Shown here in pieces: positions 3,001 through 9,000 of a stretch of DNA of 35,570 nucleotides. Position 1 is the stretch's first letter. Each line of letters starts with the position of its first letter. Origin of the DNA: Escherichia coli (GTDB lineage: Bacteria > Pseudomonadota > Gammaproteobacteria > Enterobacterales > Enterobacteriaceae). The stretch lies in NCBI RefSeq assembly GCF_003334385.1, contig NZ_QOWN01000045.1, one strand, 5' to 3'. A program made the position numbers.

Positions 3001-6000
3001 AGCTTTCTCCTTTTTAGGTAGTTAAGTTGTTACGAGTTGCAAGAATACAACATTAACAACTTTTATCACAACTTTTAGGTGTTGGAAAGCTAAAACATAA
3101 AGTTGTAACCTCATCAAAAAAGAGAGGGATATGTTGTGAAAACACTGGCAGAACGATTAAAGATAGGTAGAGAGAAAGCTGGCATGAGCCAAGCTCAACT
3201 AGCTGAAAAAATTGGACTTTCACAACAATCTGTAGCCAAAATAGAGAATGGCGAAACTCTACAACCGCGCAAAATTAAAGAAATTGCAAAAGTTTTAGGT
3301 GTATCACAAAAGTGGTTACAACTTGGTATTGAAGACAACGCATCCATACCTGATCTTGTTGTAAAAGAAGCAGAAAGCACCGCATTAGACCCCGATATTT
3401 TCGTAAACATTCCTGTTTTAGATGTCGAGTTATCGGCAGGTAACGGATGTCTGGCTGAAATAGTTGAATCAGCTATTGACTGGTTTCCGTTAAGAAGAGC
3501 AGATTTGAGAAAATCTGGCGTATGTGCATCTAATGCCAAGATCGTAAAAATATGGGGGAACAGTTTATTACCGGTTCTCAATAATGGAGATCTTGTTGCC
3601 GTTGATATTTCTCAAACCGTTCCTATTCGTGATGGCGATCTTTATGCCGTACGAGATGGTGTATTGCTAAGGGTTAAAATACTTATCAACTTACCTGACG
3701 GTGGCTTGATTCTTAGAAGCTTCAACAAAGATGAGTACCCAGATGAAATACTCACCTTTGAAGATAGACGAGCCAGAATTCATGTTATAGGTAGGGTATT
3801 CTGGTCATCGCGAACTTGGTAATGCATCGAAAAGCATTTCTTCAGAAATAATTTTAAGTTTTGCACCATTATCATCCCTATAAGATATAGCCTTTTCGAT
3901 CTTCCTTCCGTGACTTGAGAATTTCCAATCACGGGAGGAAAGCGTCCCAATTACTAAAAAATCCAACTTTTGAGTAATTCCACTACTGATGTTCCCACCA
4001 GCATTTTTAATCAAATTTTCAACTACGGCTCTCTTTCCTGCAACAAAAGTGCCTGTAAGACAATAGGTTTTACCCTCTAACTCTATCGAAGCCCCTACAT
4101 CAATAGGCAGCCTGGTCGCCAAACCATCCACCACCCCACTTTCCAAGTCACATCCTGTGAAGTCTACTAATGCCTTATGTAGAGTTAAACTCTCATCTTC
4201 AGTAATAACACCATCTTTAAGAATTTCCTTTACAAGTGCATAAAGTTTTTTTCCTGGGTAGTTGTTCTTCAAAGCTCCATTTTGCTCAAGCCACCAATTA
4301 AGATATCTTATTTCTTCTTGAGTTAAGCTCCGATCAGCAATTAATCCTTTACATAGTCCATTAAGTAAATGGACATCTACATCCTTGGAGTAAAAATCAA
4401 TTTCAGGGATATCAAGAATTTCCCTCTGTATTTGGAGAAGGCTATTTTTAAGGTCATCACGTTCTTCTGATGTGATTATTCCATCCGCAAGAATATCCGA
4501 CACCCGTGCTGATAGACTTTTTATAACTCCATTATTGATAATCTGCTTTGCTTCAAGTAACCATGTATCTAAGTAAAGAACCTCCTCTTCACGGACAACT
4601 CCATCTGCAATGATTCCATCAATGATGCTAATCAAGTTAGCAAATAACTTGTCCCGGTTCTGTGTGTAATTAAAAGCGTAAAGCGCGTCTTCCATACAAC
4701 CTCCTTTTTTTGATAATCCTTGCACTCCTTGGCTACTCGTTCAAACCACATAAAGTTGTTGACAACATTCAAAACCACAACTAAATTACAACTTAAAGGT
4801 GTTAAAACAACGAACAGGCAGGACGCCCACGAAGTAGCCGCCGGTGGCGTATGAATGACCGGATGATTCGTTAAATACTATGTGTAAGAGAGCGTAAATG
4901 AACCGTTATTTCACATGCTCGTTTTGTGGCGCAAACGAGCTGCAGGCAAAAAAAATCATCGCCAAAGGCGGAAAAGATGAAGTTGCTATCTGCTCTGAGT
5001 GCGTAGTCTTGTGTGTCGGGGCATTAATCAATATCAGCACAACTATTCAGTTCACACCAAATGAGAATGCGCCTTTAGATGCGCGGAAATCTGGAGGTTA
5101 AAGAACAAAATGAAAGTCCAGATTTTAAACAATAGTGGTGAAGTCGTTTGGTCATACGACATAGCCGCTCCTGTAGATCAGAGCGGCGATAGCTGGACCA
5201 ATGGGAAACATCAGATTATGGCTGGAGTTGTGTTCTCTTTACGCCGTGCTTTAGAACAGGCTGAAGTATTTCCATCAGACCCTGAATGGAAATGGCCTTT
5301 TTCTATTTGTCCAAATTCGGAGAGCACATTTCAGAAAATTGGTCAGAAAGTCGCACTCGAAGAGCATCAGCCAACTGTTTCCTGATTTTTTCAGGTAACT
5401 CGTCGGCATCGCAGAAACAACAACGCTCGATCATGTTGAAAGCCGATGCGTAGAACTGTTTCTGCTGAGTGTCGCTGAGACAGGAAAAGAGCGACGTTAC
5501 GATGATTTTATTAATTGCATTATCAAGTTCTTTTTCATCAAAAGTCATTTGATTTTCCTTTTATGTATACTGGCTTAAAAGGATACCACCGAGCCTGAAG
5601 TGGTGAAAAGACAGGCACATAACAGCTAAGTATTTTCAACCAGAGAGAATCCTTAGCGTTGTGGTGAATGCGGCTCAGCGCACGCGGGTTAAGGTTGAGG
5701 CTGACAGTCGACCTTCTGTGGATACCCACCCGTCTGGTGTGCAACCTTCGCCAGGCACCGGGAGGCACCCGGCACCACAACTTTATGCTGTGTGTAGTCC
5801 TGGCGGTACCAGTTTGTACCCTTGCTTCCGGCTGGTACCGTCCTTTTTACAAAACAGAGAAGAGCATCACCGGACGACGGGCTCATAACCCAATCCATCC
5901 GGGCGGCTGCCACCGCAGGTGTTCTTCTCTGTTTTGTGGAGAAACTAATCGGCCTTGCAGGGTCGATATGATGAGGAGCAGCAAAATGGCTAGCGAACGC

Positions 6001-9000
6001 AGTACTGATGTGCAGGCATTTATCGGGGAGCTGGACGGCGGCGTATTTGAAACCAAAATCGGCGCAGTTCTCAGTGAAGTCGCTTCCGGTGTGATGAACA
6101 CGAAAACCAAAGGGAAGGTCTCACTCAATCTGGAAATCGAACCGTTTGATGAGAACCGTGTGAAAATCAAACACAAACTCTCATATGTTCGCCCGACTAA
6201 CCGCGGGAAAATTTCCGAAGAAGACACCACCGAAACGCCGATGTATGTCAATCGCGGTGGTCGCCTGACTATTCTGCAGGAAGACCAGGGACAATTACTG
6301 ACTCTTGCCGGTGAACCTGACGGAAAACTCCGCGCAGCAGGTCGTTAATATCGTTCTTAATAAACTGATTATTTATCTCATCACTGAATATCTTTATATA
6401 GTGAGGACTTATTATGTCTCAGAACTTAGACGCAACCGCAATTAATCAAATCCATGCCCTTATTTCTGCTCAGGGTGTTAATGAAATTATCAGTAAGATT
6501 GGTGCCGATGCTGTGGCATTGCCTGAGAATTACCGCATTCATGATCTGGAAAAATTTAATTTAAATCGTTTCCGTTTCCGTGGTGCGCTTTCCACTGCCA
6601 GCATCGATGACTTTACCCGTTATTCTAAAGATCTTGCAGATGAAGGCACCCGCTGCTTTATCGATGCCGATAATATGCGTGCCGTCAGTGTGCTTAACCT
6701 GGGTACTATTGATGAGCCAGGTCACGCAGATAACACTGCCACTCTCAAACTGAAAAAGACAGCACCGTTCTCTGCTCTGTTGTCTGTTAACGGCGAGCGT
6801 AACTCCCAGAAGTCACTGGCAGAATGGATCGAAGACTGGGCCGACTACCTTGTGGGCTTTGATGCTAATGGTGATGCCATTCAGGCAACAAAAGCGGCTG
6901 CGGCAGTCCGTAAAATCACGATTGAAGCAAACCAGACCGCTGATTTTGAAGACAATGACTTCAGCGGCAAACGCTCCCTGATGGAGTCTGTCGAAGCGAA
7001 GACCAAAGATATTATGCCTGTGGCATTTGAATTTAAATGCGTTCCGTTTGAAGGCCTGAAAGAACGTCCGTTTAAATTACGCCTCAGCATTATCACTGGC
7101 GATCGTCCTGTACTGGTTCTGCGCATTATTCAGCTGGAAGCAGTGCAGGAAGAAATGGCTAACGAATTTCGTGATCTGCTTGTTGAGAAATTCAAGGACA
7201 GCAAAGTAGAAACCTTTATTGGTACTTTCACCGCCTGATTTCATTACTGCAAATGCCCCTGCGGGGGCATTTATGGAAACGTAATTGACTCAATAATCGC
7301 CGGATGGTGAGGGCTTCCTTTTACCAGAATTCAGCGCGGTGCAGCGCATATACGTGGAGAACAAAATGTCATTTATTAAAACTTTTTCCGGGAAGCATTT
7401 TTATTATGACAGGATAAATAAAGACGACATCGTTATTAACGATATCGCGGTTTCTCTTTCAAATATCTGTCGCTTTGCAGGACATCTTTCACATTTCTAC
7501 AGCGTCGCCCAACATGCGGTGCTTTGCAGCCAACTGGTACCGCAGGAATTTGCTTTTGAAGCGTTAATGCATGATGCAACAGAAGCGTATTGCCAGGACA
7601 TCCCGGCGCCACTGAAACGCCTTCTTCCTGACTATAAACGGATGGAAGAAAAAATAGATGCCGTAATCCGTGAGAAATACGGGTTACCCCCGGTTATGAG
7701 TACCCCCGTGAAATATGCCGATCTCATCATGCTGGCAACCGAACGCCGCGATCTCGGGCTTGATGATGGCTCTTTCTGGCCTGTGCTGGAAGGTATCCCG
7801 GCAACAGAGATGTTCAACGTGATTCCACTGGCTCCAGGCCATGCCTACGGGATGTTTATGGAACGCTTTAACGAATTATCGGAGTTACGCAAATGCGCAT
7901 GAATGTTTTCGAAATGGAAGGGTTTCTTCGCGGGAAATGTGTACCGCGAGATCTGAAAGTGAATGAAACGGATGCTGAATACCTGGTGCGTAAATTCGAT
8001 GCGCTTGAAGCTAAATGTGCAGCACAGGAAAACAAAGTAATACCAGTGTCAACTGAACTGCCACCAGCAAATGAAAGTGTTTTGTTATTCGATGCTAACG
8101 GAGAAGGCTGGCTAATTGGCTGGCGTTCTCTCTGGTACACCTGGGGACAAAAAGAAACCGGAGAATGGCAGTGGACATTTCAGGTCGGGGACCTTGAAAA
8201 CGTCAATATCACTCACTGGGCAGTAATGCCAAAAGCACCGGAGGCTGGAGCATAATGACCACATTTACCAATAAAGAACTGATTAAAGAAATCAAAGAAC
8301 GAATCAGCAGCCTAGAGGTTCGAGACGATATTGAGCGCCGTGCTTATGAAATCGCACTCGTATCTCTGGAAGTAGAGCCAGATGAACGCGAAGCCTATGA
8401 ATTATTCATGGAAAAGCGTTTCGGTGACTTAGTAGATCGTCGGAGAGCAAAAAACGGCGATAACGAATACATGGCATGGGATATGACTCTCGGTTGGATC
8501 GTCTGGCAGCAACGAGCTGTTATCCATTTTTCAACAATGACACAGCAAGAGGTGAAATAATGGAGCCATACAGCCTCACACTCGATGAGGCCTGTCAGTT
8601 TCTTCAGATATCCAGACCAACCGCCACCAACTGGATACGAACAGGCCGCCTACAGGCAACACGTAAAGATCCAACCAAGCCAAAATCTCCTTACCTCACA
8701 ACACGGCAAGCCTGCATTGCGGCGCTTCAGTCTCCGCTGCATACTGTCCAGGTGAGCGCGGGTGATGGCATAACAGAGGAAAGAAAATGTCACTCTTCCG
8801 CAGAGGTGAAATATGGTACGCCAGTTTCACATTGCCGAACGGTAAAAGATTTAAACAGTCTCTTGGAACAAAGGACAAAAGGCAGGCGACAGAACTCCAT
8901 GACAAGCTAAAGGCTGAAGCATGGCGGGTCAGCAAACTTGGTGAAATACCTGATATAACGTTCGAGGAAGCGTGTGTCAGGTGGCTTGAAGAGAAAGCAC

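Follow-up and report, generated by a model that had tools for sequence, protein, structure and literature searches.

A CPS-53-type yfdPQRST cassette in the early-left part of an Escherichia coli prophage and the conserved yfdP-yfdQ pair within it

The DNA analysed here (the window) is a stretch of 35,570 nucleotides (nt) from contig NZ_QOWN01000045.1 of the Escherichia coli assembly GCF_003334385.1. It contains the regulatory and early-left portions of a lambda-like prophage, which lies in the E. coli chromosome and ends at the thrW tRNA gene, with proA and proB beyond. The element under study is the cassette yfdP-yfdQ-yfdR-yfdS-yfdT at 5986-8560, whose five open reading frames (ORFs) are all on the plus strand. 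It is followed by the excisionase and integrase genes (xis-int) and then by tRNA-Thr (thrW). A previous inspection by a model, without database searches (the sequence-only reading), had placed five genes at this interval next to xis-int, in the lambdoid early-left position. Both points are confirmed: the ORFs lie at exactly those coordinates, with a cI-like repressor gene and a pL-like promoter upstream and the excisionase, integrase and tRNA-Thr genes downstream. The RefSeq names match for a 98.7% identical thrW locus of E. coli O103:H2. The cassette and its downstream neighbours comprise the following features (aa, amino acids).

5986-6348, plus strand: yfdP, 120 aa, the small partner always preceding yfdQ
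6414-7238, plus strand: yfdQ, 274 aa, DUF2303
7254-7275, plus strand: GC-rich hairpin TGCCCC-TGCG-GGGGCA (7254-7269), then TTTAT, in the yfdQ-yfdR spacer
7366-7902, plus strand: yfdR, 178 aa, HD-domain protein (RefSeq start; the ORF opens at GTG 7339)
7893-8255, plus strand: yfdS, 120 aa, mosaic, with a C-terminal DUF551
8255-8560, plus strand: yfdT, 101 aa, mosaic
8560-8910, plus strand: excisionase (recombination directionality factor), whose start overlaps the yfdT stop by 1 nt
8787-9950, plus strand: tyrosine integrase ORF (the RefSeq integrase gene has 1,119 nt in the 98.7% identical locus)
9965-10040, minus strand: tRNA-Thr(CGT), the thrW attachment site

The yfdP start codon (ATG 5986) is preceded by GAGGAG at 5973-5978; its ORF is open upstream to 5668, and the start at 5986 is backed by homologue alignments. 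A Shine-Dalgarno sequence lies 4-9 nt ahead of the start for each of the five genes. The overlap ATGCGCATGA at 7893-7902 combines the yfdS start with the yfdR stop, TAATG at 8253-8257 combines the yfdS stop with the yfdT start, and a third overlap, TAATG at 8558-8562, links yfdT to the excisionase gene. The first two had been cited as signs of five tightly packed, translationally coupled genes. They are real, but the description is overstated, since overlaps are confined to yfdR/yfdS/yfdT/xis, and spacers of 65 nt and 127 nt separate yfdP from yfdQ and yfdQ from yfdR. The hairpin in the second spacer was read from the sequence and was not called by the consensus terminator scan; together with its TTTAT, it is a possible attenuator or transcript end.

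Comparison with strain K-12 identifies the cassette. Window 5967-8613 is 96.8% identical in DNA over 2,647 nt to the yfdP..yfdT region of K-12 prophage CPS-53 (KpLE1, b2359-b2363), and the five proteins are 96.7-98.9% identical to their counterparts over the full length. Genes, order and overlaps are the same, and the excisionase gene comes next in both. On this near-identity, the cassette is the already described CPS-53-type yfdPQRST early-gene block. It is thus already known: the cluster bears a name in K-12, a phenotype has been published for it, and genome annotation recognises it. The surroundings differ. CPS-53 sits at argW with IntS and TorI, whereas the window prophage sits at thrW with another integrase and a 116-aa excisionase. 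The homology begins 19 nt before the yfdP ATG (5967) and ends 54 nt into xis, indicating that the same block is found in prophages with different integration modules. The K-12 upstream region is rearranged and lacks the small RNA (sRNA)-like element and the RNA leader described below, as the homology begins only at 5967.

This block is common in the species. Of 5,426 complete E. coli genomes, 1,936 (about one third) contain at least 80% of it, with up to seven matching places in a single genome, and 2,496 (~46%) contain the yfdP-yfdQ allele. An IS66-family element (tnpA, tnpC) divides the best match to window 5600-10100 into two pieces in the genomes of E. coli ETEC1732 and ETEC1734; in these two, an insertion sequence has landed in or beside the cassette. 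The same P-Q-R order is found in the active lambdoid phages SfV (orf29-31), ST64B (sb37-sb35), LLS (gp39-gp37), mEp460 and phiNP. As in the window, these clusters belong to the early-left operon, between the repressor gene and xis-int. ST64B likewise carries the conserved RNA leader upstream of yfdP. Its type of proteins is 57-68% identical, and other accessory genes replace yfdS and yfdT. The PHROG families of the five window proteins are the low-numbered 204, 210, 318, 583 and 660.

The sequence-only reading had regarded the five genes as one conserved module. This was examined by collecting the loci around YfdQ homologues from annotated phages, species-representative genomes and IMG/VR, the last queried with four different YfdQ types; the scan of species-representative genomes contributed at least 18 loci. 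All ORFs in the 283 loci obtained, which fall into 39 YfdQ clusters (80% identity), were scanned with profiles built from the window proteins. Among the hosts are Escherichia, Salmonella, Klebsiella, Vibrio, Pseudomonas, Marinobacter and Halomonas, and Xanthomonas/Xylella phages are also represented. YfdP is encoded immediately upstream of YfdQ in all 37 evaluable clusters (37/37) and in every evaluable locus. A YfdR gene follows within 8 kb downstream in 11 of the 34 clusters that could be evaluated for it, and it is adjacent in 4 of the 34. Full-length YfdS and full-length YfdT are restricted to the E. coli-type cluster, where they are present in 65% and 29% of the loci, respectively. The five-gene module therefore does not hold: outside the E. 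coli/Shigella-type cassette, only yfdP and yfdQ are always together.

The phage collection gives the same picture, with YfdP in 180 records and YfdQ in 184, and an identical host distribution for the two. YfdR occurs in 330 phage records, mostly of Bacillus, Caulobacter, Rhizobium and Stenotrophomonas, hosts that are absent among the YfdQ hits. Among 32 YfdQ lineage representatives, the commonest neighbours after YfdP are a cI-like repressor and an integrase. In 16 of the 32, the repressor is encoded on the same strand, 1-4.6 kb upstream; YfdR is present in 9 of the 32, and no neighbour family except YfdP is found with YfdQ in most of these lineages. The pair is also carried by reportedly virulent phages of the Xanthomonas/Xylella group. 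Even among 80 prophage contigs with at least 99% identical yfdQ, many hold a yfdT fragment or no yfdT. The five genes are thus a lineage-specific arrangement, and the conserved unit is YfdP-YfdQ, an obligate two-gene unit across phages of Gammaproteobacteria. YfdR is an independent, facultative gene that is often placed beside the pair, and yfdS and yfdT are mosaic accessory genes with full-length forms confined to the E. coli/Shigella-type cassette. A plasmid leading-region context for YfdQ was also considered and rejected, as only 23 of 72,556 plasmid records contain YfdQ, and most of these are mislabelled chromosomes or non-mobilisable replicons of phage size.

YfdQ is a DUF2303 protein, as had been recognised from the sequence (PF10065, E 1.8e-92, residues 7-272 against model positions 2-269 of 269), and is 98.9% identical to K-12 YfdQ. 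The family comprises 2,443 representative clusters at 50% identity. The best 150 of these 2,443 representatives are about 265-290 aa long and without fusions, so domain fusions were discarded as a clue to function. At E <= 1e-30, the sequence clusters of the pair at 50% identity number more than 1,000. A few database entries carry both PF10065 and PF27127, the domain that is precomputed for YfdP homologues; their length falls short of that of the two proteins combined, and they have the appearance of deletions or miscalls. Among 108 diverse members, the near-invariant YfdQ residues include E46, R52, R56, Y70, H104, Q132, E140, D141, R166 and R223, a set compatible with a ligand-binding or catalytic site.

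A YfdQ homologue is present in the Protein Data Bank (PDB) as entry 9o7m (“YfdQ Protein”), which has 36 chains; the homologue is ~40% identical to the window protein. The chain is 94-99% identical to proteins of the Xanthomonas/Xylella phages MET23-P3, Usme and CP2. No paper describing this entry was found. The fold searches used a PDB copy ending 2026-04-08, which lacks 9o7m, and returned no informative match for the predicted folds of YfdP and YfdQ. In the YfdP model (predicted local distance difference test, pLDDT, 84), three long strands come after a single long helix. The scanned Pfam copy gave no match for YfdP or YfdT. One phage record labels both YfdP and YfdQ as DUF2303. YfdP as a paralogue of a YfdQ domain was rejected on a profile alignment (hhalign probability 0.1%).

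The motif HDATEAY, on which the sequence-only reading had based an HD phosphohydrolase, is indeed present in YfdR (MHDATEAY). The HD metal-binding residues H50, H69, D70 and D119, by which an HD-domain phosphohydrolase is recognised, are all in place. In 144 distinct homologues, down to 23% identity, R36, H50, H69, D70, E73, D78 and D119 are at least 97% conserved. Pfam gives weak YfbR-like (5e-5, residues 41-104) and HD_3 matches, and the protein matches phrog_318, “deoxyribonucleoside 5' monophosphate phosphatase”, with an E-value of 6e-110. It falls below the equivalog cutoff for YfbR (NCBIfam NF003009, 19.9 bits against 122, residues 41-98 only). By these profile scores, YfdR is a member of a separate HD subfamily (phrog_318) and not a YfbR orthologue. 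YfbR, the chromosomal E. coli 5'-deoxynucleotidase, belongs to the HD superfamily, has the same H...HD..E....D motif as YfdR and is reported to act as a phosphatase on deoxyribonucleoside 5'-monophosphates (dNMPs). The spacing H69-D70-x2-E73-x4-D78 is what we take to be the YfbR active-site pattern. A functional precedent is Dmp of phage T5, annotated as a pre-early deoxynucleoside-5'-monophosphatase. It is an analogue of YfdR; homology was rejected (BLASTP E 3.6).

The conserved HD residues indicate that the hydrolase site of YfdR is under selection, which favours a nucleotide-directed enzymatic role as its conserved function. Such an activity is plausible, given the conservation of the HD site, the RefSeq name of K-12 YfdR (98.9% identical, “5'-deoxynucleotidase”) and the cited, albeit low, nucleotide affinity. 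This reported low affinity also suggests that canonical dNMPs may not be the true substrate. To this extent, the proposal of an HD nucleotidase acting on the nucleotide pool is plausible. Its second half, the exclusion of competitors, found no evidence: PADLOC-DB 2.0 has no family matching YfdP, YfdQ, YfdR, YfdS or YfdT at E <= 0.01.

YfdS belongs to phrog_583, and its N- and C-terminal halves match different PHROGs. The C-terminal part (residues 50-117) aligns with the whole DUF551 model (PF04448, positions 3-68 of 68), though weakly (E 4.9e-4). YfdT is phrog_660. Its N-terminus matches several other PHROGs, and the N-terminal 40-50 residues are common to larger early-left proteins. Many related loci retain ~42% of YfdT. 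The excisionase matches phrog_2907 (E 1.9e-51, residues 1-116 against profile positions 2-117 of 117) and, at 27 bits, stays slightly below the cutoff of TIGR01764. RefSeq annotates a longer helix-turn-helix/excisionase gene on the plus strand (8476-8910), with a start equivalent to 8476, inside yfdT. As the PHROG profile aligns with residues 1-116 counted from ATG 8560, this RefSeq start is probably too far upstream.

Upstream of the cassette lie the regulatory genes of the prophage and two RNA elements.

2752-3000, minus strand: cro-like gene; the replication and CII-like region is also on the minus strand
3136-3822, plus strand: cI-like repressor gene
4759-4787, plus strand: pL-like promoter TTGACA-17-TAAATT (promoter scan, 10/12 matches)
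5628-5850, plus strand: element best called STnc100/PasD-like sRNA
5848-5943, plus strand: structured RNA leader, between the terminator and the yfdP ribosome-binding site

AAGTTGT/ACAACTT half-sites overlap the pL-like promoter (4745-4802) and recur in the cro-cI intergenic region (3030-3110), so the two sites probably represent OL and OR, the operators of this immunity type. The promoter at 4759-4787 is the probable start of an early-left transcript that includes the cassette. The element at 5628-5850 aligns over its full length with Rfam RF02076 (STnc100; E 3e-6), with 41.2 bits, which falls short of the gathering score (47); related loci gave no hits at the gathering threshold either. It is best called STnc100/PasD-like, both STnc100 and PasD being described prophage sRNAs. 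A terminator hairpin (5802-5842), followed by a U-run at 5844-5848, closes the element, and the stem of this terminator covaries among genera.

The RNA leader follows directly. It is present in 161 loci (58 distinct variants), among them those of the E. coli and ST64B types and of seven further enterobacterial genera, and every copy ends just before yfdP. A 21-bp helix closes the structure, which also contains two short helices and a variable hairpin, usually with a UUGCAG-like loop. In 31 distinct sequences, 95.5% of the cells are paired, compared with 41-54% in slid controls. Compensatory changes occur in seven pairs, and the covariation score was reached by none of 500 shuffles (0/500). The leader is not coding, as the variable hairpin has insertions whose lengths are not divisible by three. 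It matches no Rfam family, and could control the translation, stability or termination of the yfdP-yfdQ message. An extra hairpin is found after the leader, at ~5951-5966. RefSeq annotates a “frameshifted hypothetical protein” over the leader/sRNA region.

The statement that the module as a unit has no established role, made in the sequence-only reading, is outdated. Noguchi and Katayama (2016, PMC4776307) recovered yfdQRST of K-12 in multicopy as a suppressor of hda-185. According to that study, extra copies curb initiation both in hda, dnaAcos and seqA mutants, where it is excessive, and in the wild type, where it is normal. The minimal set that blocks oriC initiation in multicopy is yfdQ plus yfdR plus either yfdS or yfdT; yfdP is dispensable in this assay. 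Extracts oversupplied with YfdQRST inhibit oriC replication in vitro. Purified YfdR binds DnaA, an interaction for which Phe46 in domain I is important, and it displaces DiaA and DnaB to a moderate degree (PMC4776307). By near-identity only, this initiation block and the DnaA binding would carry over from K-12 to the window.

Several DnaA-binding initiation blockers are comparable, namely lambda P, SirA of Bacillus subtilis, Dps and the competitor DiaA, none of which has a sequence relationship to YfdR. The contact of YfdR at domain I Phe46 is the counterpart of the Phe49-dependent site of SirA and is common to DiaA and DnaB (PMC4776307). Lambda P, in contrast, binds DnaA domain III, and YfdR alone is insufficient in vivo (PMC4776307). 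Unlike the four other proteins, YfdR would also be an enzyme. Other literature concerns yfdP and yfdQ. Both are described as being without known function, and it is argued that a role in recombination is unlikely, as the cluster is also found in phages with a complete Rec module (PMC12315714). In K-12, SrsR has its strongest binding site in the yfdO/yfdP spacer, and yfdPQ is given as an operon (PMC9181523). A preprint reports that production of YfdQ or YfdM in the matching deletion host leads to plaques by the resident phage.

Taken together, we moderately favour a reading in which the genes at 5986-8560 form a CPS-53-type composite cassette in the pL operon of the thrW lambda-like prophage, which restrains host replication and adjusts nucleotides for the phage. 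In the lysogen, to judge from the layout, the cassette would be silent behind the cI-like repressor, and upon induction or infection, it would be transcribed from pL along with xis and int. YfdR, with YfdQ and either YfdS or YfdT, would then block oriC initiation, and its conserved catalytic residues suggest that it may also dephosphorylate dNMPs. The net role would be to shut down host chromosome replication and to adjust the nucleotide flow toward phage development.

A number of observations weigh against this reading. All the functional data come from multicopy overexpression in K-12. Deletion of yfdQRST leaves initiation unchanged, and the authors cannot exclude an overexpression artefact (PMC4776307). 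The affinity of YfdR for nucleotides is given as much below that of YfbR in a passage of the same paper that cites Zimmerman 2008. DnaA binding is known for E. coli YfdR only, and YfdR homologues are found in Bacillus and Caulobacter phages, for which binding to domain I of E. coli DnaA is unlikely as the conserved function. The terminator at 5802-5848 lies between the pL-like promoter and the cassette, so that a pL transcript would need readthrough. Finally, yfdP, the tightest partner of yfdQ, is irrelevant in the sole functional assay, which indicates that the native function of the P-Q pair may differ.

Some of these points feed the closest competitor, to which we give somewhat less than an even chance: YfdR alone would be a manipulator of the nucleotide pool, an independent phage 5'-deoxynucleotidase that stands beside yfdP-yfdQ in enterobacterial phages by chance, and its DnaA binding would be a side effect of overproduction. 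The HD-site conservation over the 144 homologues, the 330 phage records with many hosts outside the YfdQ hits and the PHROG annotation of the family as dNMP phosphatase all fit this explanation, and the artefact on which it depends is conceded as possible by the authors of the DnaA study. However, the binding of purified YfdR to DnaA is specific, with its dependence on Phe46 and its moderate displacement of DiaA and DnaB, and the nucleotide affinity quoted in that passage of PMC4776307 is low. Moreover, the need for yfdQ and for yfdS or yfdT would be left unexplained. It is improbable, in our view, that YfdP-YfdQ are instead an unrecognised module for recombination or DNA-end handling, replacing Red/RecET/Erf in phages that lack a Rec module. 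The position is that of Rec genes, and no recognisable Red/RecET-type Rec genes lie between pL and int in the window prophage, comparable to the LLS class. Genes for SSB and exonuclease often adjoin in Vibrio phages, and the 36-chain PDB entry of the YfdQ homologue would also suit such a module. But YfdP-YfdQ coexist with complete Rec modules: RecT, exonuclease, Gam and SSB are found in phage PA2 and Rad52 in Vibrio phage 1.232.O, and RecT-/YqaJ-like genes are present in Vibrio-type loci. Neither protein showed sequence or fold similarity to annealase, exonuclease or Gam; their models are unlike Rad52, Red-beta, RecT and Erf, and the authors of PMC12315714 likewise conclude against such a role.

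The least probable explanation, and a very improbable one, assigns the cassette or a part of it to anti-defence or superinfection exclusion. The accessory early regions of temperate phages often hold such genes, and an HD hydrolase could destroy a signalling nucleotide. This is general knowledge; the observations made here point the other way. The PADLOC models gave no match for any of the five proteins, and the genes stand behind a repressor-controlled promoter and should be silent in a lysogen, which argues against a prophage-encoded exclusion role. In addition, YfdP-YfdQ also occur in the reportedly virulent Xanthomonas/Xylella phages, and YfdQ is nearly absent from plasmids.

The remaining observations concern the region between the repressor gene and the cassette. 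The slot between the repressor and pL is the position of rexAB in lambda. Here, it is filled by a 306-aa gene (3805-4725, minus strand; G+C 0.38-0.40) between the cI-like repressor gene and the pL-like promoter. Its product belongs to phrog_3989, has a BRCT-like C-terminal region that matches DNA-ligase PHROGs, and weakly matches PDC-S48, a PADLOC candidate (3e-7). Possibly, this is a moron or defence gene that is expressed in the lysogen. Three small ORFs, 4898-5101 (plus), 5110-5385 (plus) and 5303-5548 (minus), lie between pL and the sRNA-like element and are assigned to PHROGs 5259, 3195 and 3311. The N-terminus of the first is C4 zinc-finger-like and, by eye, resembles the ClpX type, and this ORF weakly matches a “protease” PHROG; the other two are convergent and overlap by 83 nt. 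In related phages (PA2, ST64B and others), genes for C4 antisense RNA and isrK RNA lie a few kb upstream of yfdP, above the Rfam gathering scores. An Rfam scan of window 1-12000 (E <= 0.1) reported neither C4 antisense RNA nor isrK. Their positions in the collected loci are as follows.

L002, 505-692: C4 antisense/isrK RNA genes
L003, 1617-1805: C4 antisense/isrK RNA genes
L090, 4134-4335: C4 antisense/isrK RNA genes
L091, 3271-3456: C4 antisense/isrK RNA genes

Beyond the composite cassette that we favour, one further idea is offered tentatively, and we consider it rather unlikely as a whole. The obligate YfdP-YfdQ pair, and not the five genes, would be the real unit. It could be an undescribed phage machine acting on host DNA replication or metabolism, whose expression may be controlled by the RNA leader that precedes it in enterobacterial phages. 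The pair is present in ~46% of complete E. coli genomes and stays unsplit across very distant phages. If it is true that it controls host replication or another DNA transaction, this would explain a very common set of prophage genes, and the upstream RNA leader provides a concrete handle on when yfdP-yfdQ is expressed.

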